The position numbers and the translations under genes are program-made. The notes beneath the pieces are model-generated. The model made no database searches and was not told where the DNA came from. It saw only the letters and a program-made list of their open reading frames with translations. From a virus (lineage: Duplodnaviria; Caudoviricetes), in the IMG/VR virus record IMGVR_UViG_3300032007_000080, positions 3,210-67,209 of that record: DNA of 64,000 nt; one strand, written 5' to 3'. This document shows positions 14,978 to 41,293 of this stretch, piece by piece; position 1 is the first letter of the stretch; each line of letters starts with the position of its first letter.

Positions 14978-15874
14978 TTATTCTGCAATATTGAAAGCTA
15001 TTGCAGCAGTTCTATTATTTAAAATAAATACATCACTGTATTCTTTTTCATAATAGATGTAATCACCTTTTGTTCCAGCTGCTGGAGCTTCAACACCAAC
15101 GAAAGAATATTTAGATGGTGTGATTATAGCAGATGGGTGAACTAAGAACATATTTACTTGTTTAGCACCATCAGCAACTTCATAACCTACGTTATTGAAA
15201 TTGTAAGCAGATTTCATAAGTACTGATGGAACTGTATTTAAGTAAACTTCGTCTAATCTATCAACTATTCTATTGATAGCTCCGTTGTTGTTATCAACAG
15301 GACGTCTTAATCCAATTTGAGATGCATTTTTTAATAGAGTTTTAACTGCTGGAGTAACATATAGTATTCTTCCAGAGAAAGGAACTAATGCTTCGTCCAT
15401 AGCCTCCATCATAGCATCAAATACGTTTAATACATTATCAACTGTTAAAGCTGTTGTATTAGGTGTACCACCTTGTGCTGACCAATCTGCAAATATTTTT
15501 GAGATTGTATAAGCATCTTTTTCAGGGAATTTTTGAGTTTCATTAAATACCTTTGTAGCATTTTGAATTGTTAATACCATATTAGTATCATCAACATCTG
15601 CTGGGTCTAATGAAGTACTCCATTCTCTATAAAATTGCATTGTTTTGTCTTCGTATGTATCATCTACATTTCTTTGGAAGACACCGTCAATAGCATCACG
15701 GTTAACATTCTTTCTACCAGTTACACTAATAGATGGAATGTGAATAGTTTTGGCATTTAAGAAAGTATAAATAGAGTTGTTTGCTACATTATATAACTCA
15801 CCAAAGTTTAACACATTTGGGTAAGCTTGTGCTAACGCTCTCTCATACTTTTCAGCATAATTAACAGCTGCCAT
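14978..15874 (-). CDS. Major capsid protein (true start likely 15874, MAAVNYAEKY)
   Basis: AKTIHIPSISVTGRKNVNR and size typical of Firmicutes HK97-fold capsids; AAGGAGG RBS. Confidence 0.85.
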   Translation of the reverse strand: MAAVNYAEKYERALAQAYPNVLNFGELYNVANNSIYTFLNAKTIHIPSISVTGRKNVNRDAIDGVFQRNVDDTYEDKTMQFYREWSTSLDPADVDDTNMVLTIQNATKVFNETQKFPEKDAYTISKIFADWSAQGGTPNTTALTVDNVLNVFDAMMEAMDEALVPFSGRILYVTPAVKTLLKNASQIGLRRPVDNNNGAINRIVDRLDEVYLNTVPSVLMKSAYNFNNVGYEVADGAKQVNMFLVHPSAIITPSKYSFVGVEAPAAGTKGDYIYYEKEYSDVFILNNRTAAIAFNIAE

Positions 15875-16057
15875 AACAAATCCCTCCTTATAAAAATATT
15901 TTAAGTCCGTAGTAAACGGAAATGGGTTTACTACATAACTTTTTACATTATATAGAAATATTACCCATCCCATTTACTACGGACTTATGAAAGTGAGTGT
16001 TTATTTATTCCCTATACATAACACCGTGTCCCCAGGACATATCTATTTCTTAATTAT

Positions 16058-17579: not shown

Positions 17580-18467
17580 TTAAAAATTTCCATTACATCC
17601 ACATCCGCATCCATTATTGTTGCAAGTGAATATTGGAGTTCTTCCATAAACTGGAGTTGTTGGAACTGGACAACTATTTAATCTATTATATAAGGCGTCA
17701 ACTTCATTGCTAAATCCTTGAGAGATGAATGCGTTTTGAGCTGTTTGACTAGCTCTTAAATCAGCCATTTGTAATTGACCTTGAAGTTCTGCTATTCTAT
17801 CATTTTTAGCTTCAACTTGAGCTTTAACACCATCTAATTCTAATTGACACAATTTATCAAGTATAGCTTGTGTATTAGATGTAGCATTAGTGATAATATC
17901 TCTTGTATTATTAGCGTCAGCAAATCTAGTCGCGTTACCTTCGTTTTGAATTATATTTTGTGTTTGACAATTAGCTAATCTATTTTCACAACAACAATCA
18001 GCAAATTGTGAACTGATTTGATTAAATCCTTGTAGCATAGCTGTTTGATTTGCAAAGTTTTGGTTCATATTTGCCATTTGTCTTGCGTTAGCAGAACTTT
18101 CTGCGTTAGCAAATCCAGAATTTATTGTTTGATTTACCCCAGCAAATCCATTACATAATTGAGTACTTACATTTTGAACTCCATTAGAAATATCATTTAA
18201 TTGATTTCCTAATTGTAATGTATTAAATCCATTATTTGTGTTTTGCATAATTTCTTTTTGTCCATTAGATAACCAAGGATACATATTGTCTCCTCCGAAA
18301 CCTCCACCAAAGCCACCAAAACCATTGTTCCAGCCACCCATCGCGAAGATTAGAAATAAGATTATCCACCAAGCGCCATCTCCACCAAAGCCATTACTGA
18401 AACCATTGTTTCTGTCTTGAATTAGAGCTACGTCAGAGGCAGATAAACCACCATTTTCATAGTTCAT
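17580..18467 (-). CDS. Hypothetical protein: Gly-rich hydrophobic N-terminus, Asn/Gln-rich coiled coil, Cys-rich tail
   Basis: GGDGAWWIILFLIFAMGGWNNGFGG...ADCCCENR...CNNNGCGCGC. Confidence 0.7.
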   Translation of the reverse strand: MNYENGGLSASDVALIQDRNNGFSNGFGGDGAWWIILFLIFAMGGWNNGFGGFGGGFGGDNMYPWLSNGQKEIMQNTNNGFNTLQLGNQLNDISNGVQNVSTQLCNGFAGVNQTINSGFANAESSANARQMANMNQNFANQTAMLQGFNQISSQFADCCCENRLANCQTQNIIQNEGNATRFADANNTRDIITNATSNTQAILDKLCQLELDGVKAQVEAKNDRIAELQGQLQMADLRASQTAQNAFISQGFSNEVDALYNRLNSCPVPTTPVYGRTPIFTCNNNGCGCGCNGNF

Positions 18468-18514
18468 AAATTTACCTCCTTTTTTAAAATATTTATATTA
18501 TTTGCAAATAATAA

Positions 18515-18736
18515 CTATTGTAATGTGTTTTTGAATTTACTAAATTCAGTATCAAAATCTAAACCTCTTTGTTTACAGATATTTCTAGCAAAATTCTCAA
18601 CACCTTTTGTATCTCCATTTTGAGCCATTCCAATAACATTACTCAAAATCGGATTACGGATATTCATTTGTTGTAATATACCTTTTGGAGTAAAACCTTT
18701 CATCATATATTGTTTTATTACATTTACAGGGTTCAT
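18515..18736 (-). CDS. Hypothetical protein (cassette member)
   Basis: 73-aa ORF coupled to the upstream gene. Confidence 0.65.
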   Translation of the reverse strand: MNPVNVIKQYMMKGFTPKGILQQMNIRNPILSNVIGMAQNGDTKGVENFARNICKQRGLDFDTEFSKFKNTLQ

Positions 18737-18738
18737 AA

Positions 18739-19185
18739 CTATTTCTCCTTTTTATACTTTATGTCATCTGTAATATCTTCTAACTTTCGTTTTAATGTTT
18801 TTATATCTTCTTTAATATCTTTGATGTCCTTACTATTTACATCTTTTAATTGTTTTTCCAAATCACTTTCTGTAACATATTTAGGTTTGTTTTCTTCCGG
18901 TTCATTAGATATTGGTTTGTAAATAATTACTTTACTAGTACCATCTTGTTGTAATTGTTTAGTTATTATAGCACTATTATCTGTTAATGGAAAATAACTT
19001 ACACTACCATCATAAGGAATATCAGCGGCTTTTACAACATCTAAACTATCCACTACCTTACCTTGTAGGGCAGTTGTCTGTGGTTTATATGTAGGCTGAT
19101 TTTGTCTTTGTTGTAATTGTTGATTATAATTAGGATATGGGTTGTACATACCATATTGATTATACATATTATAAGGTTCAAACAT
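18739..19185 (-). CDS. Hypothetical protein with a Tyr/Asn/Gln-rich N-terminus (first cassette gene)
   Basis: GGAGG RBS; MFEPYNMYNQYGMYNPYPNYNQQLQQ. Confidence 0.7.
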   Translation of the reverse strand: MFEPYNMYNQYGMYNPYPNYNQQLQQRQNQPTYKPQTTALQGKVVDSLDVVKAADIPYDGSVSYFPLTDNSAIITKQLQQDGTSKVIIYKPISNEPEENKPKYVTESDLEKQLKDVNSKDIKDIKEDIKTLKRKLEDITDDIKYKKEK

Positions 19186-19263
19186 AATCTTACCTCCTAT
19201 CTTTTATTAGTTATATTATATAAAAATAAAAAATATTTGGTTATTCTGACTGTAAACAAAAAA

Positions 19264-19300
19264 TTGACAAAAAAAAATATAGGGTTAATTCCCTATATTC
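19264..19300 (-). terminator. Intrinsic terminator closing the agr-like operon
   Basis: AATATAGGG-AATTAA-CCCTATATT hairpin overlapping the stop codon, then a long T-run on the minus strand. Confidence 0.7.
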
Positions 19301-19865
19301 CACAGTATAATCTAATAGCAAATGCAATTTTATCGAGTTGTTCTACAATTCTAGGATTGTCCATATCCAATAATTCCGACATCTCATTAAATGTTTTGCC
19401 ATCTTTAAATCTATACTTGTAAATTAAATATTCTAAATTGTTTCTCCTCTTAATCTTACTTTCAAATTCTAATAACTTATCATCAAGTTCATTATATTTT
19501 ATATAGTCTATAATATCTTGATATTTGCTAGGTTCATCATAATTTTTCCATAAATACATATCATATATGTTAGACTTACCAGTCATTATGAAAGCAGCAA
19601 ATATTGCAAATGTAATTGATACTACTAAATCTACTTTCAATAATACAAATAAACTTAACATTATTAGAGCACTCCACACTAAACATCTGTACCAAGTTTT
19701 GAAATGAAGTGACTTACCAAATAAACCTCTTGCAATCATAAATGTTAACATTACTAAAATGATATAATTGATGGGTAGTTTCAACAATATACCCATCAGA
19801 GCTATAATTATTGTTTCTGCTATGTTGAAGATAAGACTAGGAAGAATTTTCCTAAATTTTTCCAT
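19293..19865 (-). CDS. AgrB-like membrane cysteine peptidase fused to a C-terminal sigma-70 region-4-like HTH
   Basis: TM segments with R-GLF-G-KSL-H-FKTWYR-C (His...Cys at +7, as in S. aureus AgrB H77/C84); C-terminal EYLIYKYRFKDGKTFNEMSELLDMDNPRIVEQL. Confidence 0.65.
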   Translation of the reverse strand: MEKFRKILPSLIFNIAETIIIALMGILLKLPINYIILVMLTFMIARGLFGKSLHFKTWYRCLVWSALIMLSLFVLLKVDLVVSITFAIFAAFIMTGKSNIYDMYLWKNYDEPSKYQDIIDYIKYNELDDKLLEFESKIKRRNNLEYLIYKYRFKDGKTFNEMSELLDMDNPRIVEQLDKIAFAIRLYCGI

Positions 19866-19868
19866 ATC

Positions 19869-19922
19869 TTATTCTCCTTCTTCAACATCAAACAATAGAA
19901 ACCAACTTCTCCAAGGTTTCAT
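19869..19922 (-). CDS. 17-aa AgrD-like peptide MKPWRSWFLLFDVEEGE (below the ORF-track cutoff)
   Basis: Strong GGAGGTG RBS overlapping the upstream stop; aromatic core followed by an acidic DVEEGE tail. Confidence 0.6.
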   Translation of the reverse strand: MKPWRSWFLLFDVEEGE

Positions 19923-19928
19923 AGTAAA

Positions 19929-20477
19929 TCACCTCCAACTCATATAAAATAATATAGAATTGTTTATTATAAAAAACATTATATTGAACAAAACTAAATT
20001 TATACATCTAAATGTAATTGATTTCATAGGTTTTGGTATTTTATCATTTCTATTCCAAAATTTCTTATGCATATTTTGTATTTTATATAATTTGTTTCTA
20101 ATAAAATACAATATTATAAATAACATAATTTTAGCTAATATATTACAAATAATAATGTCTTTTATTGTTACAGCAACTATTATATAACTAATCGTAGATA
20201 TAATTATCATCAATATACTCGCTATACCTAATGTGAATATATCTGTTATTTGTGATTTCTCGTGATATAATAATCTTAATATCATATAAGTTATAATAAA
20301 ATATGATATGTGAGACCAGATAGTCACAGGAGTAAAATTAAATAATAAAATATATTCTATTATCATTAAAATTGTAAATAATATCTGTTTCTTATCTAGT
20401 CTCTTTGTAAATATCATAAATAATGCAAAATATATTGCTTCTGGAATTTGACCTAATAACAATTGTAAAACATCCAC
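19929..20477 (-). CDS. Polytopic membrane protein resembling the sensor domain of AgrC-type kinases (no kinase domain)
   Basis: About 5-6 hydrophobic segments, 182 aa, first gene of the agr-like operon; family call rests mainly on topology and context. Confidence 0.45.
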   Translation of the reverse strand: MDVLQLLLGQIPEAIYFALFMIFTKRLDKKQILFTILMIIEYILLFNFTPVTIWSHISYFIITYMILRLLYHEKSQITDIFTLGIASILMIIISTISYIIVAVTIKDIIICNILAKIMLFIILYFIRNKLYKIQNMHKKFWNRNDKIPKPMKSITFRCINLVLFNIMFFIINNSILFYMSWR

Positions 20478-20498
20478 TTTCTTTTTCTCCTTTATAAT

Positions 20499-20527
20499 AT
20501 TATATCATAAAGAATTATGAAAGTAAA
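20499..20527 (-). promoter_or_regulatory. Promoter of the agr-like operon
   Basis: TTTACT-17 nt-TATAAT with an extended -10 TG. Confidence 0.65.
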
Positions 20528-20547
20528 CAAATTCGTTAATTATTATT

Positions 20548-22368
20548 TTAATAACCTGTTGTCCAACCTGCATTTACAAAATCTTGATAATTACTTAATG
20601 TTTTACAAATATTCGCTTGTTCTTCTGTTAAACCTATACGCTTTAAAGTTTTATTAGAAGTTATTTTTACAGCATTTGTACACATTGCTAATATATTGTT
20701 TAAACTTTCATTGTTTAAACTTGAACAACTACTAAACATATAACCCATATTAGTCACATTACTTGTATTTAATAAAGGTATTGTTGTTAAACTTGAACAA
20801 CCACTAAACATATAAACCATATTAGTCACATTACTTGTATTTAATAAAGGTGTTCCATCTGTTTTACTTGGTATAGTTATTATATTCTTATCAATATCTT
20901 TATCTTGGTCTGTTAATATTCTTGGTTGCATATTATTATATTGTACTTGAATTTTGGCATATACTTCGGCATTTACATCTGTAAATGAATTACTTACACT
21001 TGTTGTTAATGTTCCATTTTCTACACCATTTTTACCATAAAATGTTTTTTCATATACATAATCTGGTGTTGCATTTAATTGTGATTTTGCTATAGAATAT
21101 TTATAATAAGGTACATAGTTTATCAAATCATCTATAAAATAACTTGTACGAGTATTACCATTTAAAGGTAATATATCATAATAAACAGAACATCTAAAAC
21201 CATTATTGCTGTCCATTATAATAGGTAAACAATTCATAGTAATATTTGAATTATAATACCATTTATAACCATCATAAGTACTGCCTACTTCATTAAAAGT
21301 CACAGTTTGGGTGTTAATAATAGTATAAGTGTCTAAGTCTAATTCATTAAATATAAGAGAAGGAATATTATCACCATTATGTCTCAAAGCCAAACTATAT
21401 GTCTTAGCACTTGTTTCAATTACTCCCAAAGCATATCCATCTTCATAACCAGTTTTAATGGTTCTTTCTATAATATAATATTTATTATTAAACTTTCCTA
21501 TACAATATCTATCCCCATTCATACTATCAAATAAATAATTTTCGGCTAAATTAATAAATTCAGCATAATCTATAATAGTATTGTCATAATCATAAGGTAC
21601 ACGAGATGTGTCATCAGCCCCATCTACAATAGGTAATTGAAAATATTTATCTTTAAATTCAGTGTATTCATATAACCCATCAAAATAATTTCCACCTATT
21701 TTCATAAAGTTTCCAATTACATTATTGAATGGACCACCCATGCTTGTCCATTTAATGGTTGTACCAAATTCTTGTAGTTCTTCTCCACCATCAGTTCTTG
21801 TATATGTTATTCCATCTTGTGAAGTATATTCTACTCTTATTTGACTACTTTCACCCCAACCATCAAATCTAAACCTTGATGATGACATATCTACATTCCC
21901 ATCAAACATTACACTGTGGTCTACTGCTCTAAATCTTCCATAAACGTTACCTGTAAACGCTTCGTCTAACACTACTGTATTTGGGAATATACAACTACTA
22001 AATTCATTTTCTTCTGTTACTGGCTGTATTTCTTCTCTGTAAACTACTGCTAAATCTCCTTCTTTTGCAGTTGTATCAGCTCGCATTTCTTCTATAGTTT
22101 TAAACAGTTTTACATCTCCTCCAGTTTGAGGTACGTTAACACTAATTACTACTTGGTCCATTGCATCATAACCAGTATCAGGTAATTGTGTATAATTACC
22201 ATTAGTTGTTATACTAATGGATTTCGTTTGATAGTTACCAGCAGTTTCTATCTCCATTATTTTACTATCAAACTCTGCTGCGGGGATACTTGTATTATCC
22301 CCGAGCTTTGTTTTGATAGCTGTGGCAACATCATTTAAAAAATTCGTTAAATTATTTATTCTCGCCAT
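20548..22368 (-). CDS. Putative tail fibre/receptor-binding protein with BspA/DUF285-like LRR repeats (paralog A)
   Basis: N-terminal NLTNFLNDVATAIKTKLG; repeats PLLNTSNVTNMxYMFSxCSSL; C-terminal AGWTTGY. Confidence 0.6.
   Translation of the reverse strand: MARINNLTNFLNDVATAIKTKLGDNTSIPAAEFDSKIMEIETAGNYQTKSISITTNGNYTQLPDTGYDAMDQVVISVNVPQTGGDVKLFKTIEEMRADTTAKEGDLAVVYREEIQPVTEENEFSSCIFPNTVVLDEAFTGNVYGRFRAVDHSVMFDGNVDMSSSRFRFDGWGESSQIRVEYTSQDGITYTRTDGGEELQEFGTTIKWTSMGGPFNNVIGNFMKIGGNYFDGLYEYTEFKDKYFQLPIVDGADDTSRVPYDYDNTIIDYAEFINLAENYLFDSMNGDRYCIGKFNNKYYIIERTIKTGYEDGYALGVIETSAKTYSLALRHNGDNIPSLIFNELDLDTYTIINTQTVTFNEVGSTYDGYKWYYNSNITMNCLPIIMDSNNGFRCSVYYDILPLNGNTRTSYFIDDLINYVPYYKYSIAKSQLNATPDYVYEKTFYGKNGVENGTLTTSVSNSFTDVNAEVYAKIQVQYNNMQPRILTDQDKDIDKNIITIPSKTDGTPLLNTSNVTNMVYMFSGCSSLTTIPLLNTSNVTNMGYMFSSCSSLNNESLNNILAMCTNAVKITSNKTLKRIGLTEEQANICKTLSNYQDFVNAGWTTGY
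20716..20850. repeat. 72-bp tandem duplication (24-aa LRR-like unit)
   Basis: Two near-identical copies starting at 20716 and 20788. Confidence 0.85.
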
Positions 22369-22386
22369 TAGTTATCACTCCCCTTT

Positions 22387-23805
22387 CTAATATCCAGTAG
22401 TCCATCCAGCATCTAAAAATGTTTGATAATTTGTTAAACTTTGACAAGTAGTTGCCTCTGCGGATGTTATTCCTAAATATCTTAATGTTTTTGTACCAGT
22501 ATAAGATGTAGCATTTGCACACATTAACAATATACTATTCAAAGAATTATCATCTAAATTAGGACAATAACTTCCATAACTTCCAAATAATTCAGCCATT
22601 GTGGTAACTTTTGATGTGTCTATTGTACTAGGAAAAACAATAGTCGTTAAATGTTTGCAACCCCAAAACATGGTAGCCAAGCTTGTGATATTACTAAAAT
22701 CTAAATTGCTCAAATCACATGTTACTAAATTAGTGCAACTATCAAACATACTTGTTACATCTTTAACATGTGACGTATCGAATATGTTTGATAATTTATA
22801 ATATGTAACATCAGTATCATGATAATATAATTTTGATAAATCTAATAATTTATTTTTTTGAGCTTCAATTAATGTAAAATCATCATTTTCTTTTAAATAT
22901 AAATCTGATTGATAAGATTTTGTTCTCAAAAATTTAGAAACCTCATCATACCAACCACCTGTATTACTATACTTAAATGATGTAACAAATTTAACAGTAT
23001 CTCCTGTTATAGTTCCGACATTTCCTGGAATTGTAAATGTAGTTCTATTATATGTAATTCCATTAGTGCTAGTATATTTTATATAACTCGGATTTATAAA
23101 ATTAAATTGTGTTCTATTACCATAAGCAGATACAGTACTATTATTATCAGTACGTCTAAATGATGTACTAAATGAAGAAGTTATTGGAGTTTGCATAACA
23201 ATTTGTTCTGGAAAAACTAATTCATCAAATATAGAAGCAGTATTAATCTCATTTAATATTTCTGTTAAAACTATTGATTGAACTCCATTCTGTATTTTGG
23301 TTGATTGTTCCATTTCTGATACTGAACCAAAAAAATATAATTTATTAGGATCTTCTATATATGTACCAGTTATTTTATTACCATTTACATAAGCAGTTTT
23401 ACCTTCTGTAATATCACTTGATGTAGCTGTAGCGTCTGATGTATCAATGGTTGGTACATTTATAGTTAAATCAATGCTAGAAAATCCATCATACCCTGTT
23501 TCTGGGCTTAAAACTATATGAGTATTTTGTGTAAATTCATAATTTTTAGTTTGTAATGCTGGTATTGGTACTTGAACATTTATCAATATACTAGATAATG
23601 CGTCATACCCTGTATCAGGCGTTATAGTTTGACTTCCATTAGTTGTAATATTTACAGATTTAGCTTGATATGTTCCAACAGTTTCAATTTCTCCAATTTT
23701 TGTGTCAAATTGACTTGCTGGTATATCTGTCTGGTCACCTAATTTAGCTTTTATTGCTGCAGCTACATCGGTTAAAAAATTAGTTAAATTACTTGTATCA
23801 GCCAT
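22387..23805 (-). CDS. Putative tail fibre/receptor-binding protein with BspA/DUF285-like repeats (paralog B)
   Basis: Shares N- and C-terminal motifs with 20548..22368; DTSHVKDVTSMFDSC and DFSNITSLATMFWGC repeats. Confidence 0.6.
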   Translation of the reverse strand: MADTSNLTNFLTDVAAAIKAKLGDQTDIPASQFDTKIGEIETVGTYQAKSVNITTNGSQTITPDTGYDALSSILINVQVPIPALQTKNYEFTQNTHIVLSPETGYDGFSSIDLTINVPTIDTSDATATSSDITEGKTAYVNGNKITGTYIEDPNKLYFFGSVSEMEQSTKIQNGVQSIVLTEILNEINTASIFDELVFPEQIVMQTPITSSFSTSFRRTDNNSTVSAYGNRTQFNFINPSYIKYTSTNGITYNRTTFTIPGNVGTITGDTVKFVTSFKYSNTGGWYDEVSKFLRTKSYQSDLYLKENDDFTLIEAQKNKLLDLSKLYYHDTDVTYYKLSNIFDTSHVKDVTSMFDSCTNLVTCDLSNLDFSNITSLATMFWGCKHLTTIVFPSTIDTSKVTTMAELFGSYGSYCPNLDDNSLNSILLMCANATSYTGTKTLRYLGITSAEATTCQSLTNYQTFLDAGWTTGY

Positions 23806-28974: not shown

Positions 28975-29049
28975 TGGTGACCTATAATGGAGTTGAACCA
29001 TTCCCTCGTGCGTGAAAGGCACGTGACTTTACCGATTGTCCAATAGGCC
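28975..29049 (-). tRNA. tRNA-Glu(UUC)
   Basis: GGCCTAT...CGTGC-CT TTC AC-GCACG...GGTTCAACTCC...ATAGGTC-ACCA cloverleaf with encoded CCA. Confidence 0.9.
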
Positions 29050-29054
29050 ATATA

Positions 29055-29130
29055 TGGTCCGAGAAGAGAGATTTGAACTCCCGACCTGGTGGTCCCAAAC
29101 CATCCGCGCTACCAACTGCGCTATTCTCGG
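29055..29130 (-). tRNA. tRNA-Pro(UGG)
   Basis: CCGAGAA-TAGCGCAGTTGGTAGCGC...TT TGG GA...GTTCAAATC...TTCTCGG-ACCA. Confidence 0.9.
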
Positions 29131-34385: not shown

Positions 34386-34855
34386 TTTTCATCATCTCTT
34401 TCTTATTTATATTTGATAGAGATTTTTCTCTCTCTTTTCTCTATCTATAATTATATTATATCATAAATATAAAATAAAATCAACCTTTTTTTGAAAATTT
34501 TTTCAATTTTTTTTCAATTTTTTCATAGAACAAGTGTTCGATCGGTTTTTTATTTTTCGATTTTTTCTCACCCCGACCGCTCCGCCTTTTTGCTCCTGCA
34601 TACGCCCCGGACAAATAGTACAGACAAACGTCCGCAACGCCTTTACAACTTCCGCACCGAAAAGATTACGTCGGCCCCACCCACAAAAAGATTACCGATA
34701 TAACTGCCCCTACTGTGGCCGGCCCCGATTACTGCCCCTACTGCTACAGGCTCGGACAAATTGTAACGGCCCCTATCCTAACATCTGTTCTCTAATTTAC
34801 ATAAAAAAGATAGGCCATCTCTGACCTACCTTCCAAATAATTGAAAATTGAAAAT

Positions 34856-35263
34856 CTATTTGCTTGTTGTTTCAGTTTTTGTTTCTTTTGCTTTTTGAGC
34901 TTCTTTAGCTTTTCTTTTCTCTACTTGCTCAATTGTGTCGATGTATTCTGGTATTGTTTTACCATCAAAGGCTATATTATTTTGTTTGAACTCTTCTATG
35001 TAGTGTTTTAAATCATACCCATTAGCTTTCTCATCAGTAGCTATTCTTGATAACCAAACTACTTCACCGATTGTTCTAGCTTTTCTTACATTTGATAAGA
35101 ATGCTGTGTAACCTTCATTAAATGTGATTACATATTCCTTTCCTTCTTTGATAACTTTCTTGATACTTTTTTCGTATCCTTTCACCTTTGAAAAACATCT
35201 GTCTACCATTTCTTGTGTTACATCTTCTTTTGTAATTGCATTTTTTTCGTTTAATTCTTTCAT
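34856..35263 (-). CDS. Hypothetical protein
   Basis: GGAGGAG RBS. Confidence 0.65.
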   Translation of the reverse strand: MKELNEKNAITKEDVTQEMVDRCFSKVKGYEKSIKKVIKEGKEYVITFNEGYTAFLSNVRKARTIGEVVWLSRIATDEKANGYDLKHYIEEFKQNNIAFDGKTIPEYIDTIEQVEKRKAKEAQKAKETKTETTSK

Positions 35264-35366
35264 ATTAAACTCCTCCTTTTATTAAATTTCTTTGTGGATG
35301 CCTCCACTATATATTATCCCTTTCGGGTTAATACCATAACCAACGGAACCTCCGGAAACCTCCGGA

Positions 35367-35528
35367 CTATTTCCATCTTTTGATTTCCCACTCATAATTG
35401 TCCTCATCATAATTCATCTGTGAACATGGATAATCTTCTATTAGTTCAATTAGTCTTTCTTTAATTGTATCAAAATCATCTGCCTCATATATTTCTCCGT
35501 CTATCATATTTTTTATTTTGTACTTCAT
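35367..35528 (-). CDS. Hypothetical 53-aa protein (not in ORF track)
   Basis: MKYKIKNMIDGEIYEADD...; GAGGT RBS and promoter cassette. Confidence 0.55.
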   Translation of the reverse strand: MKYKIKNMIDGEIYEADDFDTIKERLIELIEDYPCSQMNYDEDNYEWEIKRWK

Positions 35529-35610
35529 ATCGTTACCTCATTTCTTTCTTTATTTTATATTTATTTTATAATTATATTGTATCATATATTTATTGAAAAG
35601 TCAACCTTTT

Positions 35611-35943
35611 TTATAAATTTATTTGTCCAACTTCTTTAATTTGTGGATAAGTATCTCTCCAATAACATTTAACCTCAACCTTCTTTATTCCATCAAACTT
35701 ATTATCATTAAAGTATCTTTCCAATTCCATCATAAATGTATAAAATTCATATTCACCAAAATCTTCTTGTGTTACCCATTCCAATTTATATGTGTCACCA
35801 TCCAATTCACCATTCCAATTTTTACATCTCATACAATCTGCAAATTCTTCTTCGTTGACCATATCCTTTCTCCACTCTGGGTATCTGTCTCCTCTAAATT
35901 TTGGACCATTAATTTTAATCATTTCTGTGTACCTCTCTTTCAT
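35611..35943 (-). CDS. Hypothetical protein
   Basis: Preceded by a promoter cassette. Confidence 0.65.
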   Translation of the reverse strand: MKERYTEMIKINGPKFRGDRYPEWRKDMVNEEEFADCMRCKNWNGELDGDTYKLEWVTQEDFGEYEFYTFMMELERYFNDNKFDGIKKVEVKCYWRDTYPQIKEVGQINL

Positions 35944-36594
35944 TTCTTTCTTTATAATTATATTGTATCATAAATTTAAAATAAAATCAACCTTTTTTCA
36001 AAACTTTCTCCAATATTTGTTCCCACTTTCTAATTTCCTCCGTGCTCGGAGAAAAAGTAACAACTTGTTGCACGAAAAAATGTTTCGTAAAAAGTCTTGA
36101 AAAGATTACGGCATCTGACTTGTATAGATTTCATATTCACTTTTTTACTCCTATTTTACCGATTTTTAATAATTTTACCAATAATTTTACCGATAAATAT
36201 AAAATAAATTATATCTCTCCAAGTATAGACAGGGGAAGAGATACAGGACTTATATTTATTTTATATTTTTATTTTTTATTGTAAAAATGGTAAAAAAGTA
36301 AAATTATTTTTTAATCAAACGTAAGAAAAAAAAAATCGAAAATTTGAGAAATCGTTTTTATACAGGATTTAAAAAAGTCGATACAATTTTACCCGGTCTC
36401 TGAAAGTCTCTCCCTGTCTCATTTCTTCGGTAAAATTATTAAATTTTGATTTTTTACCATAAAGTTTGTAGATACGACAAATAGCAGTCATTGAATTTAT
36501 TTTTACGACCGCTTGATATAATATATTCTCGGAACCACCAGTAAATGGAGCTTGCGAAACTTATCGGAGTTTTCCATTACCTTGATTTACCATT

Positions 36595-36645
36595 TCTCAC
36601 ACTTTTAATCTCACACTTTTAATCTCACACTTTTAATCTCACACT
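36595..36645. repeat. 14-bp tandem repeat TCTCACACTTTTAA (3 copies plus a partial), iteron-like
   Basis: Units start at 36595, 36609, 36623 and 36637. Confidence 0.85.
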
Positions 36646-36919
36646 ATATTGGTTTAAAGAGATATTGGAGTGTGAGTAACCAATACCTCACAAACCATAC
36701 TAAGTAATCTGGATATCTGGTTCCCTAGATTTAATTTCGTTCCCGTGTATTTCAACCGGTACTATCCCCCAGGATTTCTCCCTTGCTTCAACAATATACC
36801 CTTGATATTATCGCTCTACTATATTGATGTGGGTCCACTAGATTGTACGCACCTTTTTGATTACCTATATATATTATATCAAACATATTCACTTATGTCA
36901 ATTAGTATTTTTAATTTAG

Positions 36920-37774
36920 TTAATCCAAATCATAGCTTAAACTCTTATATTCGCCTTGATAAAATAGCACCCTTTCACCCAAATCTTTGCAACTATCACC
37001 GAGAATTATTCGCCTTTCCACATTATTTACTACTCTTAATCCAATTCTAGTTGGAATATTTGCTCTCAATTGTCCTGATAATATGGTAGCATCAGGTCTC
37101 TGTGTGCCTAACATCAGATGTATTCCAGATGCCCTTCCTAGAGTAGCTAATTTAACTAGGTAATATTCCATCATACCTCGAGAACCCAAATTGGTCTTGG
37201 CTCTATCACTATATATTAAATCTGCTAACTCATCTATTACCAACACAATTCTCTTACTTCCCCAAATTGGAGACTCATAACACATATCATCTGCATCAGC
37301 TCTCATATTATCTTCGGCATTTATTATTTGTTGGAATATTCCCGATACTTCAGGATTATCACCATAGAGTTCTTTTAACTTTTCTTGGATTTCTTTAATT
37401 TTATTATCTCTATCTGTACTCATTTCTCTTCCTGACACTCCCTCAAGCATAACACTTGACCAGTCCACATAATTTCTTGATTTAAGGTACTTATACCTCT
37501 CCCTCATTTCTTTTTCAAGACTACCTAATAATCTCAATACTCTTGGCCAATCATTGTCTATCTTCATTATTAAGTTATCTTCACCGACCATACATTGGTA
37601 ATCGACACATTTTGGGTCCACAATAACCACTCGACACTCATCACTCCTGAATATGTCTCGTAACATGTGTTTCAATAAATATGACTTACCAGACCCAGTA
37701 GAACCACCAATTAAGATATGTGGACATTTACATAAATCTATCTTTGTAAACTTATCAACACTTACTTCTATCAT
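36920..37774 (-). CDS. Stand-alone FtsK/SpoIIIE-domain ATPase
   Basis: HILIGGSTGSGKS, VDPKCVD, VIDELADL, GRASGIHLMLGTQRP; no TM domain. Confidence 0.9.
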   Translation of the reverse strand: MIEVSVDKFTKIDLCKCPHILIGGSTGSGKSYLLKHMLRDIFRSDECRVVIVDPKCVDYQCMVGEDNLIMKIDNDWPRVLRLLGSLEKEMRERYKYLKSRNYVDWSSVMLEGVSGREMSTDRDNKIKEIQEKLKELYGDNPEVSGIFQQIINAEDNMRADADDMCYESPIWGSKRIVLVIDELADLIYSDRAKTNLGSRGMMEYYLVKLATLGRASGIHLMLGTQRPDATILSGQLRANIPTRIGLRVVNNVERRIILGDSCKDLGERVLFYQGEYKSLSYDLD

Positions 37775-37784
37775 TGCTTCATTT

Positions 37785-37853
37785 CCTTTCTTCATTTTTA
37801 ATTTATTTTATATTTATATAGTATCATATATTGTAAATAAATTCAACCTTTTT
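37785..37853 (-). promoter_or_regulatory. Representative copy of the repeated early promoter/leader cassette
   Basis: AAGG-TTGAAT-17 nt-TACTAT (extended TG) then ATAAATATAAAATAAATTAA and RBS; about 12 related copies in the window. Confidence 0.8.
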
Positions 37854-37873
37854 TGATACAAAAGAGGCGAGAT

Positions 37874-38167
37874 TTAATCTTCGCCTTCTATTTCTTCAAT
37901 ATTATGTGGCATATCTTCCCACTCATTTAATTCATATAAATATTTTAAATATTGTCCATAACTCATTGGAACTAATTGATTTCTTCCATATCTGTCAAAC
38001 CACACTTTTCCCTCTGACACATATAATTCAAATTCCTTATGTGGACCATACACAGCTATGTGGAAATCATCTCCATCAAGCCATTCTAACTTATCTGTTA
38101 TTCTTTCATTTAGGAACTTTTTTAATTCAATAAATTTCATAATTTTGTACCTCTTTTCTTTCTTCAT
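37874..38167 (-). CDS. Hypothetical protein
   Basis: Preceded by a promoter cassette. Confidence 0.6.
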   Translation of the reverse strand: MKKEKRYKIMKFIELKKFLNERITDKLEWLDGDDFHIAVYGPHKEFELYVSEGKVWFDRYGRNQLVPMSYGQYLKYLYELNEWEDMPHNIEEIEGED

Positions 38168-38408
38168 TTAATTTATTTTATATTTATATAGTATCATATT
38201 TTGTTCCTGAAATCAACCATTTTGTTAACTTTCTTGCATTTATTGAGATAATTGCTTCGCAAAATCACATTTCATATAATTTTCATATTATAATTATATT
38301 TTATTGTATCTCCAGGAATCACCAGGTTATCCCAGGTTCTTCCCAAATATTCTCATAATATAATTTTATATATAGATTATACGAGTCATTATTTCATAAA
38401 CCTGGTTC

Positions 38409-38663
38409 CTAGACCCAGTCTTCTATATCTTTACCAATATCAGGCATTATTTCATCTAACTCCTCATCACTATACCCAGTTTCAAACATTAAATCTTCCA
38501 GACACTCTTCGTAATCATCTTTAATTGGAGTAGGACATGTATACCCCACATATCTCTTTGCCTTTTTCTTTCTTAATCTATCAGCCTCTCTTTTTTGTGA
38601 CCATCCCCATTCAGCCATTCCTAGACCAAATCCGAACATTAATCCACTTATTATTTCTAACAT
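38409..38663 (-). CDS. Hypothetical protein with an N-terminal hydrophobic segment
   Basis: GAGGT RBS plus promoter cassette. Confidence 0.6.
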   Translation of the reverse strand: MLEIISGLMFGFGLGMAEWGWSQKREADRLRKKKAKRYVGYTCPTPIKDDYEECLEDLMFETGYSDEELDEIMPDIGKDIEDWV

Positions 38664-38895
38664 ATTGACCTCACCTCTTTAATTTATTTTTAATTTATTT
38701 TATATTTATATAGTATCATAAAAAGTTAATTTTGTCAATAAAAATAGAACAAAGATGTGAAATTTTAGTCCACATCTTCTTCATTTTCGGTTTTATTGTA
38801 TTTTAGTTCTTTAATTTTATATACTGTTTTACATATTATAAGAACGATAATTATAGGTGAACTAAAAAATATTACTAATCCTAAATCTAATAACA

Positions 38896-39144
38896 TTATT
38901 CTTCACCACCCTTATTATCACATACATCCTCATCTGAGTCACCATCCATATCTATAAATGTCATTTTAGTTAAATAGTATTCTTGGTCCATATCTTTTTC
39001 ATAATACATATAACATTTAACAAATATAATTTCATTTAACCAAATATCTATACTATCTCCAGAGTCTTGTTCCACTGAGTGTAAGTGTTTCCACTTAGGA
39101 CTCTCCATAATTTTTGTTCTCATTTTTTCTAATCCTGTTTCCAT
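38896..39144 (-). CDS. Hypothetical protein
   Basis: Coupled ORF. Confidence 0.55.
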   Translation of the reverse strand: METGLEKMRTKIMESPKWKHLHSVEQDSGDSIDIWLNEIIFVKCYMYYEKDMDQEYYLTKMTFIDMDGDSDEDVCDNKGGEE

Positions 39145-39557
39145 AATTCCCTCTCTTTCTCTACACTATCAATTACACTATCAGGTAGTTTTTCTCTTTC
39201 TGGTTGATGGTCATTTATATCTCGTAGCATACTAATTAAATCATATTCGTGTTGTTCTGGCCAATCTATAAATTCCCTATCAACTATTTTCCAATTCTCT
39301 ATTATATAAACTCCATTATCTCCATTATCTTTGTCTAATCTTTCATATTTGTCAATTCCTATTGATAATTCACCACCGAAATAATTACCGATAATTTGAC
39401 ATAATCTAGCCCATCCATAATTATCTCTTTCTGGTGTGCGATAACCTTTTAATTCACAATATTTTAAGAAAGCCTCAACACTATCTCTTCCTCCATTCCA
39501 ATGAAGATATACTCCTATATCTTTACTTCTTGTTGTTATAACAGCTCTATTTCCCAT
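39129..39557 (-). CDS. Hypothetical phage protein
   Basis: MGNRAVIT...GVYLHWNGG motif; GGAGG RBS. Confidence 0.65.
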   Translation of the reverse strand: MGNRAVITTRSKDIGVYLHWNGGRDSVEAFLKYCELKGYRTPERDNYGWARLCQIIGNYFGGELSIGIDKYERLDKDNGDNGVYIIENWKIVDREFIDWPEQHEYDLISMLRDINDHQPEREKLPDSVIDSVEKERELWKQD

Positions 39558-39827
39558 TTCTAATTTCCTCCTTTTCTTGTTCTGTTAATACCTCATCACA
39601 CATTTCACAAAATTCTTGATTAGTATCATTTGTATTAAATATTGCACTACAGTGTATACATTCTTTATTTACCATTTTTAATTTCCTCCATTTCTTTTTT
39701 AACTTTCATAATTTTCTCGTGTAACTCTCTATCATATCTGTAATCTTCTGCACTCCAATGGTCTATCATTTGTACTATAAATTCTTTATGTTCTAATTCT
39801 TCGAGTTCTTTTTCAAGTTTTGCTAAT

Positions 39828-40043
39828 CTACTCATCTTGAACATCTCCTTCCATTATTTTATACCATACTTTCTTTCCATCATCATAAGTTATTATGCCA
39901 TCTTTATATGATATTCTGTCTATATCTTCTCTTATTGTTTTTGTTATTTGGTTATTTATATATTGTTCTGCATTATCTTTATTATGAAATATTTTTGCTT
40001 CAGGTTTTTCTGCTATTTTAACTACTACATACATTATAACCAT
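39828..40043 (-). CDS. Hypothetical protein
   Basis: ORF with RBS. Confidence 0.55.
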   Translation of the reverse strand: MVIMYVVVKIAEKPEAKIFHNKDNAEQYINNQITKTIREDIDRISYKDGIITYDDGKKVWYKIMEGDVQDE

Positions 40044-40234
40044 ACCTCCTCTTGATTAGTTTCATATAATAAATCCATAACCTCATCTTCTGTTAACCCT
40101 AATTCTTCCATTAAAAATTCAATATTCTCGTCCATTTCAATTCTCCTTTCATTTCTTAATTTATTTTATATTTATATAGTATCATACTTTTTCATTATTG
40201 TCAACTAATTATGAAAACTTATAGGAGAGGTATC

Positions 40235-40579
40235 TTAAATTAGGTACCTCATTCTATGTTTTATATAATCATTATGTGCCTTAATATCTTCTTCGTTATT
40301 TGTACACTTATGGTCTTGTGTCATCATTATTTCGTAATCTGGATTTAAGTATATAATTTCATTTGGGTTCCACTGAATAATTATTTCGCCAGTGTTTTTA
40401 TCTATTAATGTGTCCTCAGATAAATAATCGTCAATGGATTCGTACCAAGATAATGGACTTATTGGAGTTTGAATATTTAATGTGTTATTTCTAAATTTTG
40501 ATAGTGTTAAAACGTAGTCTCCTCTCCCTTTCTTCTTTCTTAAATTATAATTCGTATGTGTGTAATCTTGATAATTCAT
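40235..40579 (-). CDS. Hypothetical protein
   Basis: Promoter cassette plus GAGGT RBS. Confidence 0.6.
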   Translation of the reverse strand: MNYQDYTHTNYNLRKKKGRGDYVLTLSKFRNNTLNIQTPISPLSWYESIDDYLSEDTLIDKNTGEIIIQWNPNEIIYLNPDYEIMMTQDHKCTNNEEDIKAHNDYIKHRMRYLI

Positions 40580-40671
40580 AATCGTTACCTCTCTTTCATT
40601 TTTATATTTATTTTATATTTATATAGTATCATATATTTGTATTATTGTCAACCATTTATGAAAACTTGAGG

Positions 40672-40935
40672 CTAATTAAATAACCTCAAGTCAATATCTT
40701 CAAAGACAGAAGTTAATGTCTTATTATTATATGTTGTATATTGAATTATTAGTTTTTCATCACTTATGTGTAGTATTTTATAATATTCATTACTTTTGGC
40801 TATTTCAAATAACATAGAGGCCATCTCGTGAATAATTCTGTTTTTATTTTTTGTTATAAAAGCATAAGCCCTATCAGGATATTCTAACATAATGTCTTGA
40901 TTATCATAAAAAGTTCTTAATCTCATAATCGTCAC
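40672..40935 (-). CDS. Hypothetical protein
   Basis: Promoter cassette plus GAGGTG RBS. Confidence 0.6.
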   Translation of the reverse strand: MTIMRLRTFYDNQDIMLEYPDRAYAFITKNKNRIIHEMASMLFEIAKSNEYYKILHISDEKLIIQYTTYNNKTLTSVFEDIDLRLFN

Positions 40936-41293
40936 CTCTCTTTCATTTTTATATTTATTTTATATTTATATTATATATTATTTTGTTACCAAAGTAAACC
41001 TTTTTGTTTAAATTAGTGTAAATTGTTTGATTTTCTTATATAATATGAAAACACTTGAAAAATGGATTACCAGGTTCTCCATAGAGGACTTTTTATTTCT
41101 TCTTAATATAATATCATATCTCAAAATATCCAGTTTTATCCACCTATTTGTCTTGTAGCCTACATTTGCTGTCACAAAGAGCCTGCATTTACATGCTCGG
41201 AGAAAATTTTAAATTTTGATTTTCAAAAAATAAAAATAAAAAAGAGCTGAAAAAGATTTCCAGCTCTTTAATTACATATTTAACTTTGCAAAA

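Follow-up and report, generated by a model that had tools for sequence, protein, structure and literature searches.

A complete agr system (agrBDCA) joins the membrane peptidase AgrB and its precursor peptide AgrD to an AgrC-type histidine kinase and an AgrA-type LytTR regulator. Phage phiCDHM1 carries part of such a system (agrDBC), encoding a full-length AgrB, a 37-aa AgrD, and a 453-aa AgrC kinase, and it is among the nearest published items to the locus described here, along with a family of 44-aa small proteins encoded adjacent to AgrB in gut metagenomes (10.1101/494179). The locus is a three-gene cassette in IMG/VR record IMGVR_UViG_3300032007_000080, from an uncultured cattle-gut phage; the stretch that was analyzed (the window) comprises 64 kb of this 67-kb viral record, the completeness of which is estimated at 92%. 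Its first gene, gene A, specifies a membrane protein with six predicted helices; a 17-residue peptide is encoded next; and the third gene, gene C, specifies a 190-aa protein that joins an AgrB-type peptidase core to a helix-turn-helix (HTH) domain of the sigma-70 region-4 type (sigma-4). Precedents for its separate parts are found in several systems. In the FsrB/FsrD-GBAP system of Enterococcus faecalis and for the autoinducing peptide (AIP) of S. intermedius, AgrB-family enzymes form a lactone through a Ser hydroxyl, a precedent for a Ser nucleophile, although, unlike the cassette, these systems have full-length enzymes, leader-bearing precursors, and a kinase/regulator pair. In ToxR/CadC and the Enterococcus regulator BcrR, membrane helices carry a DNA-binding domain, which lets a signal at the membrane act on a promoter without a kinase, but their HTH is N-terminal and they have no peptidase core, unlike gene C, and we know of no regulator of this type that processes its own ligand. 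The small phage regulators of the Sigma70_r4/DUF1492 type (~65-100 aa) resemble the C-terminal half of gene C in fold, in family matches, and in occupying a slot ahead of the head genes, whereas in gene C the peptidase core tethers the HTH to the membrane, and a peptide gene and a six-helix protein are inherited along with it.

Like agr itself, the cassette has a membrane cysteine peptidase whose R...G...H-x6-C motif is predicted to face the cytoplasm, a short precursor encoded next to it in which a Ser/Cys position precedes an acidic C-terminal tail, and an enzyme and peptide that diverge together. It differs in that gene C retains the central four helices of AgrB, with ~30 N-terminal residues and the last two helices missing, in the fusion of the enzyme to a sigma-4 HTH, and in that AgrC and AgrA were not found; the precursor is also distinct, being 14-20 residues long, encoded upstream of the enzyme, lacking a leader or a proline-containing tail, and having a putative ring of six residues. 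A full-text search of papers and preprints found neither an AgrB-HTH fusion nor such a cassette. We give about an even chance to the reading that the cassette is a self-contained, kinase-free relative of agrBD that serves as a peptide-gated, membrane-anchored regulator of the late genes of the head operon. The features on which this reading draws are as follows.

20527..20499, minus strand: candidate cassette promoter, TTTACT, 17-nt spacer, and TG-extended TATAAT (consensus scan)
20477..19929, minus strand: gene A, 182 aa, GTG start with AAGGAG 9 nt upstream (open reading frame, ORF)
19923..19870, minus strand: 17-codon ORF, with the ribosome-binding site GGAGGTGA overlapping the gene A stop codon
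19865..19293, minus strand: gene C, 190 aa, with R46-x3-G50-x3-H54-x6-C61 (ORF)
19581..19865, minus strand: AgrB catalytic core, gene C residues 1-95, four helices (Pfam, hhalign, AlphaFold2)
19704-19706 and 19683-19685, minus strand: codons for H54 and C61, respectively
19521..19580, minus strand: linker, gene C residues 96-115 (alignment)
19296..19520, minus strand: sigma-70 region-4-type HTH, gene C residues 116-190 (fold comparison)
19301..19274, minus strand: intrinsic terminator, 11-bp stem and T run (terminator scan)
19252..19239, minus strand: candidate operator box CAGTCAGAATAACC, over the -35 position of the next promoter
19215..19220, minus strand: -10 element (TATAAT) of the next promoter, that of the head operon, with 18 nt between it and the box and the same layout at related loci

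The original prediction, made from the sequence of the window, described a self-contained operon with a promoter, a 182-aa gene, a peptide with a strong ribosome-binding site, a 190-aa gene, and a terminator, and every one of these elements is present on the minus strand. The promoter is the best-scoring site on that strand, and many related loci have similar TTTAC/TTGAC promoters before the first gene; promoter-like sites are common in this AT-rich DNA (34 found versus 26 expected), and that this one is real is no more than plausible. The peptide ORF stops 3 nt ahead of the gene C ATG, and the terminator that closes the cassette is the sole one found in 18400-21000 (0.3 expected). The search for three-gene synteny and peptide variation that had been proposed recovered 34 IMG/VR loci with the 190-aa protein, all of which keep the gene order and have a small ORF in the corresponding slot; further loci from metagenomes and metagenome-assembled genomes (MAGs) repeat this arrangement, and 44 distinct peptides were compared. 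The earlier observation that the window has no histidine kinase or AgrA also holds, in that searches of the 67-kb record with HATPase_c_5 and LytTR gave no match.

Two further features were seen at related loci. At five of them (L025, L027, L032, L017, and L013), a structured-looking conserved element of ~55 nt, located ~110 nt upstream of gene A, replaces the promoter; it reads GGCTAG...CCTAG, then ...CACTCCATT.GT.TTGCC, and has no Rfam match. The same cassette is also carried by a 208,728-bp IMG/VR record with direct terminal repeats, rated 100% complete (L004), where it matches the cassette of a 59-kb contig (L003) without a difference in the ~150 nt around the peptide ORF that were compared; the record represents a much larger relative or else a concatemer formed in assembly.

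The N-terminal half of gene C is an AgrB-type domain. The Pfam AgrB profile (PF04647) scores 26.1 bits against a cut-off of 23, and 28.6 bits in a second run, with gene C residues 10-94 covering profile positions 28-111 of 185 only, and it also matches 44 of 82 diverse gene C relatives, the best at 5e-10. A profile built from the 82 relatives aligns with the AgrB of phiCDHM1 at an hhalign probability of 79%, the alignment stopping at residue 133 of 197, and the gene C profile aligns with four canonical AgrB proteins at a probability of 91.8% (E 7e-7) with the R...G...H-x6-C motif in register. Proteolysis by S. aureus AgrB requires R70, G75, H77, and C84 (PMC10196373), and these residues align with R46, G50, H54, and C61 of gene C. 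Among the 82 gene C sequences, which are 18-70% identical to the query, H54 and C61 are the sole invariant columns; among 20 relatives, R46 is invariant and G50 is conserved in at least 90%. The AgrB-type domain with a conserved His/Cys pair that had been proposed from the sequence is thus borne out by the Pfam score, the profile alignments, and the invariance of the pair, and both the pair and the small ORF, the latter at all 34 IMG/VR loci, prove to be conserved among homologous loci. In the AlphaFold2 model of gene C (predicted local distance difference test [pLDDT] score, 95.5), four membrane helices are followed by a linker and then by a C-terminal domain of five helices; read by the positive-inside rule, the topology would put the N terminus and the C-terminal domain, together with the catalytic loop, on the cytoplasmic side. 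The linker, modelled at pLDDT 78-89, contains four residues (D102, W106, K114, and Y115) that are invariant among 20 relatives. A sequence search found no solved AgrB structure. Gene C does not have the full six-helix architecture of AgrB (~190 aa, with the C-terminal helices and the Lys-rich loop for AIP formation).

The C-terminal half of gene C has the fold of sigma-70 region 4, as had also been proposed. It superposes on region 4 of SigG1, SigF, BldN, and SigW with VIA-align Z scores of 8.4-8.8 and root mean square deviations (rmsd) of 1.3-2.5 Å over 57-65 residues, including SigG1 (Z 8.8, rmsd 1.8 Å over 65 residues) and SigF (Z 8.6, rmsd 1.3 Å over 57 residues), and nearly all of its Foldseek matches are sigma factors. 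Sigma70_r4 or Sigma70_r4_2 models match 12 of the 82 relatives, the best at 9e-7, while gene C of the window itself falls below the Pfam cut-off for the Sigma70_r4 models. The expected pairing of AgrB PF04647 with Sigma70_r4 was therefore found by Pfam score for the first domain, and for the second in the fold rather than in the Pfam score of the window protein. We regard both domain identities as nearly certain. The family is large: 159 clusters were matched at 50% identity among 1.84 billion representatives, most of the 150 clusters listed being full-length (185-220 aa) and the remainder shorter fragments, and there are ~1,300 clusters at 90% identity, on contigs commonly of 60-80 kb. Searches of PHROGs and NCBIfam returned nothing for gene C or gene A, and two IMG/VR scans that used distant members of the family as queries gave no match.

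The 17-codon ORF encodes a Trp/Phe-rich, hydrophobic peptide in which Ser6 (19906-19908) is the putative ring nucleophile and the final six residues form an acidic tail ending in Gly-Glu. The ORF occurs with a ribosome-binding site in the same slot at all 34 IMG/VR loci, is kept at every related locus for which upstream DNA is available, and is found also where gene C is just 30-38% identical to that of the window; precursor lengths known at these loci are 14-20 residues. Counted from the C terminus, the 44 distinct peptides have Glu at -1 and Gly at -2 without exception and Asp or Glu at -3 in 43 cases. Position -12 is Ser in 39, Cys in 1, and Thr in 1, and the other 3 have a tail shorter by one residue and Ser at -11; the peptides of L055 and L056 add a further Cys variant. 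Among 52 distinct coding sequences, 35 encode the nucleophile by AGY, 14 by TCN, 2 by TGY (Cys), and 1 by ACA (Thr), the Cys and Thr codons being one-step intermediates between the two Ser codon families, and the conserved Gly and the final Glu are written with four and two codons, respectively. This synonymous variation at conserved positions indicates protein-level selection on the nucleophilic side chain and the acidic tail, and the putative nucleophile and tail are the features required of an AgrB substrate. The small ORF, first proposed as an AgrD-like peptide, is a conserved substrate candidate, and we are highly confident that it is real and functionally linked to its neighbors; that gene C cleaves or cyclizes it is a step toward which we lean slightly.

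The pattern of divergence across loci ties the peptide to the membrane proteins rather than to the HTH. Distances between peptide cores correlate with those of gene A (Mantel r=0.74) and of the AgrB helices (r=0.72), and hardly with those of the HTH (r=0.14); likewise, the divergence of gene A follows that of the AgrB helices (r=0.82), whereas that of the HTH does so weakly (r=0.26). The near-uncoupling of the HTH from both the peptide and the AgrB helices implies that the HTH has been exchanged by recombination. The original reading of the locus overlooked what is probably the target of this domain, namely the promoter immediately downstream. At every locus, the promoter behind the terminator has a good -10 element, and its -35 region is taken by an element specific to the class of HTH that the locus encodes. 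Five such classes are recognized, each with its own box of 9-14 nt and with zero cross-class pairings.

Window's HTH class, 17 loci: box of the AGTC-n-GA-n-TGACA type (CAGTCAGAATAACC in the window)
Second HTH class, 11 loci: box TAGTCGTACTAGA
Third HTH class, 7 loci: box AGGAACCCT
Fourth HTH class, 3-4 loci: box ATCCGTTATAGA
Fifth HTH class, 4-5 loci: box ACACAGTGTAGA

At seven same-class loci missed by the search patterns, the box of the same class was recognized by eye, and at two loci with an unclassed HTH, no box was recognized. Within a class, the box is kept while terminator hairpins and spacers vary. Natural recombinants separate the box from its surroundings: L032 and L066 are 93-96% identical from just past the -10 element onward, yet their HTH classes and boxes differ, and L032 and L026 share an HTH class and box with unrelated downstream DNA (59-63% identity), which argues that the box goes with the HTH rather than with the gene downstream. 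The window has a single exact copy of the box, and looser matches are at chance level. The HTH is somewhat more likely than not to bind its box. Activation would be likelier than repression, since a usable -35 element is missing wherever the box is of the second, fourth, or fifth class.

Other elements were seen around these promoters. A motif, TTGTTTAC, which occurs in the cassette promoter and at four other intergenic sites, was considered as a target of the HTH and rejected, as it looks like an ordinary TTTAC-type -35 element of the kind that related loci use too. At L031 (3535-3803), there are two tandem class-specific boxes, each with its own -10 element, which suggests two HTH-dependent promoters in series. 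Six loci (L032, L066, L109, L017, L133, and L064) have a conserved hairpin-like leader, ..TTCGCCTATTAG...AATAGGCAAC.., between the box promoter and the first gene of the head block, ~80-160 nt beyond the stop codon of gene C. The window lacks this leader, which had no Rfam match in the two loci scanned (L032 and L017) and may be an attenuator or a processing site.

The cassette is accessory: of 66 related phage contigs that have the 295-aa head-region gene in common and extend far enough upstream, 16 carry it. Relatives without it have small genes in its position, including those for small one-helix proteins, and at least nine of them encode a free sigma-4-like protein of 64-78 aa (E 1e-5 to 7e-3) immediately before the head genes. 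The presence of a free sigma-4-like protein in the same slot suggests that an activator of the structural promoter became fused to an AgrB core in some phages, with the peptide gene and gene A joining it.

Gene A had been described as AgrC-like, and this identification found no support. No match to Pfam, NCBIfam, or PHROGs was obtained; fold searches with the AlphaFold2 model (six predicted helices, pLDDT 85.9) gave weak, unrelated helical matches only, the best to Pex3 (Z 8.3), in a comparison limited by the absence of AgrC sensor domains from the solved structures searched. Against three AgrC N-terminal domains, the hhalign probability was <1%, a weak test since sensor domains are very divergent, and hhalign detected no profile similarity to AgrB. 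Among longer proteins, no kinase-fused relative of gene A was found, which is weak evidence, and its ~1,400 homologues are of the same size, none with a Pfam domain. The protein atlas gave only unnamed viral clusters as matches to it. Gene A lacks any invariant His, Cys, or Ser that would look catalytic. Of the three genes it has diverged the most (mean pairwise distance 0.57), and its predicted cytoplasmic side is more conserved than its outer side (entropy 1.43 versus 2.10 bits, p=8e-8). The variable outer side, and a divergence that tracks the peptide core, would fit a peptide exporter or receptor, a fit rather than a proof, and we offer these roles as a guess. In S. aureus, separate exporters are required for the AgrD thiolactone intermediate, according to a 2026 preprint (10.64898/2026.09.29.755489), which makes an accessory membrane protein like gene A plausible. 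Homologues in bacteria are rare: 399 genomes of a single class were scored, and just 2 gave firm matches, including the MAG at the center of the search (three further weak, partial matches were left uncounted); this rarity agrees with a non-lysogenic lifestyle. A non-exhaustive check of the collected loci and proteins and of the same 399 genomes turned up no single protein that combines six helices, AgrB, and the HTH.

A working model for the cassette would run as follows. A host-type promoter would drive expression of gene A, the 17-residue leaderless precursor, and gene C, after which the His54/Cys61 site at the cytoplasmic face would remove the acidic tail of the peptide and the acyl group would then be moved to Ser6, giving a small lactone ring, or a thiolactone where the nucleophile is Cys. 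The HTH, acting on the 14-nt box over the weak -35 region behind the terminator, would control the head/structural operon, most likely by activation. The state of the peptide would set the activity of the tethered HTH, either through substrate or acyl-enzyme occupancy inside the cell or through re-sensing of an exported product with the help of gene A, and late-gene expression would then follow the peptide signal, for example, the density of infected cells. We think it less likely than not that the cassette mediates true cell-to-cell signaling, and we are more doubtful still of the fullest form of the model, in which the peptide-maturing enzyme is itself the membrane receptor and transcription factor and, with its hypervariable six-helix partner, times the structural genes of non-lysogenic phages by means of a phage-made cyclic peptide. 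If it is true, then infected cells would communicate via a one-protein device that processes, senses, and transcribes, with agr-type peptide chemistry coupled to gene control without a two-component relay in phages that do not lysogenize, and phage communication would extend past the arbitrium/RRNPP types and past the lysis-lysogeny decision. The HTH/operator cassettes and the blocks of peptide/receptor specificity would be exchangeable. The precursor (17 residues), the enzyme-regulator (190 aa), and the operator (14 nt) would constitute a very compact set of modular parts, for which nature already supplies orthogonal versions of the peptide and of the operator.

Several points weigh against this model. 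About half of AgrB (profile positions 28-111 of 185) is present in gene C, so the full chemistry of AgrB is not assured. The peptide has neither an amphipathic leader nor a proline-containing (Pro-x-x-Pro) tail like that of the canonical AgrD of three MAGs, and its putative ring would contain six residues versus the usual five. In a distant branch, the peptides of L037 (3937-4000) and L130 (3420-3473) are Trp-rich, 14 residues long, with a Lys/Arg tail and without Ser, Cys, or Thr, yet the accompanying gene C (~23% identical) keeps the His/Cys pair, which means that cyclization and the acidic-tail design are not universal. The HTH and its box are ~100-200 bp apart, and at this closeness their co-variation is partly expected from linkage alone. 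Many class-1 boxes hold a near-consensus TGACA, at which the host sigma factor might do without a helper. Gene A is assigned its role by guesswork, and cleavage, cyclization, export, and DNA binding are all steps that we infer, as are the direction of regulation and signaling between cells.

Among other explanations, it is unlikely, though least so, that the cassette jams host quorum sensing, with a cyclic peptide that blocks or triggers the host AgrC in the manner of non-cognate AIPs, gene A as its exporter, and an HTH that sets the levels of the cassette or of the late genes while blind to the peptide. The phage has its own host-type promoter for the cassette and no receptor kinase that we could find, and of the five MAGs that include a phage contig from this family, three have elsewhere a canonical AgrB of full length together with an AgrD and a kinase. 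The binning of phage contigs into MAGs is unreliable, however, the bins here spanning Erysipelotrichaceae, Lachnospiraceae, and 'Tenericutes', and the canonical AgrD cores of those three MAGs are unlike the phage peptide; moreover, a jammer leaves unexplained why the enzyme should be fused to an HTH with a matched box. That the same fusion persists in 159 clusters (50% identity) argues that the two domains are functionally coupled, and it speaks against the cassette being a cluster for a ribosomally made, post-translationally modified peptide (RiPP), in which an antimicrobial or membrane-active product would be made, gene A would confer immunity or export, and the HTH would be a late activator merely anchored by the enzyme. 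A precursor, a modifying enzyme, and a polytopic membrane protein do make up a typical RiPP cluster layout, and the Trp/Phe-rich, hydrophobic peptide and a gene A devoid of catalytic-looking invariant His, Cys, or Ser would suit it, but a phage without an integrase has little to gain by killing the neighbors of its host, and we consider this account improbable.

A role in superinfection exclusion or lysis timing, executed by the two polytopic membrane proteins with the likeness to AgrB as a remnant devoid of peptidase function, seems very unlikely. Its appeal lies in the location of the cassette, which follows the endolysin and PARCEL-repeat genes in an accessory region that varies and that encodes small one-helix proteins in relatives without the cassette, and in the presence of the cassette in just 16 of 66 relatives; a remnant, however, is hard to square with His54 and Cys61 as the sole invariant residues in 82 sequences and with strong protein-level selection on the peptide, and the sigma-4 domain and its matched box are given no role. 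Least probable is an arbitrium-like lysis-lysogeny switch, a role that the original prediction had floated on a formal likeness, a phage-encoded short peptide together with a DNA-binding protein. We reject it because no integrase or resolvase was found, either in the 92%-complete record or in the 100%-complete 208-kb relative. Further evidence points the same way: nearly all genes run in one direction, the phage has its own DNA polymerase and primase, firm homologues of gene A occur in just 2 of the 399 bacterial genomes (one class) that were scored, and the box lies on a structural-gene promoter rather than at a repressor locus.

The surroundings of the cassette are those of a phage with a GC content of 30% in the window and nearly all genes on the minus strand, among them genes for the DNA polymerase, primase, terminase, portal, endolysin, major head protein, and tape measure. 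The cassette lies between the head-gene block and two PARCEL/DUF285-repeat proteins that come after the endolysin. Neighboring features are as follows.

20548-23805, minus strand: two PARCEL/DUF285-repeat proteins (606 and 472 aa), directly upstream of the cassette
18739..19185, minus strand: first gene of the head block, 148 aa, with weak scaffold-like matches
15973..14978, minus strand: major head protein gene, which with a 73-aa gene and the 295-aa phrog_16490 gene lies beyond the 148-aa gene
28975-29130, minus strand: tRNA genes Glu-UUC and Pro-UGG, within a 1,063-nt stretch without long ORFs

PARCEL/DUF285 repeats are typical of surface proteins of Mollicutes, Listeria, and Erysipelotrichia, and the 606- and 472-aa proteins are likely receptor-binding proteins that hint at the host group. 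No match was found in nucleotide and protein searches of deposited phage genomes (50,697 records); as no deposited phage carries the cassette, the family has escaped study. The stretch or its close relatives occur in runs of 14 studies, mostly of bovine and sheep gut metagenomes. Two of the runs are labelled metatranscriptomic and were flagged as probably DNA, and the relatives' contigs in them are thus uninformative on expression.

An Rfam scan of the window returned the two tRNAs only. A second ORF-poor stretch of 976 nt is located at 35944-36919, and the presumed early region in which it falls (34465-41118, minus strand) has ~8-10 copies of near-identical strong promoters ahead of small genes, each with a GGTTGA-type -35 element and a -10 element of the form TATGATAC(T/A)AT, followed by a common leader, TATAAATATAAAATAAAT.

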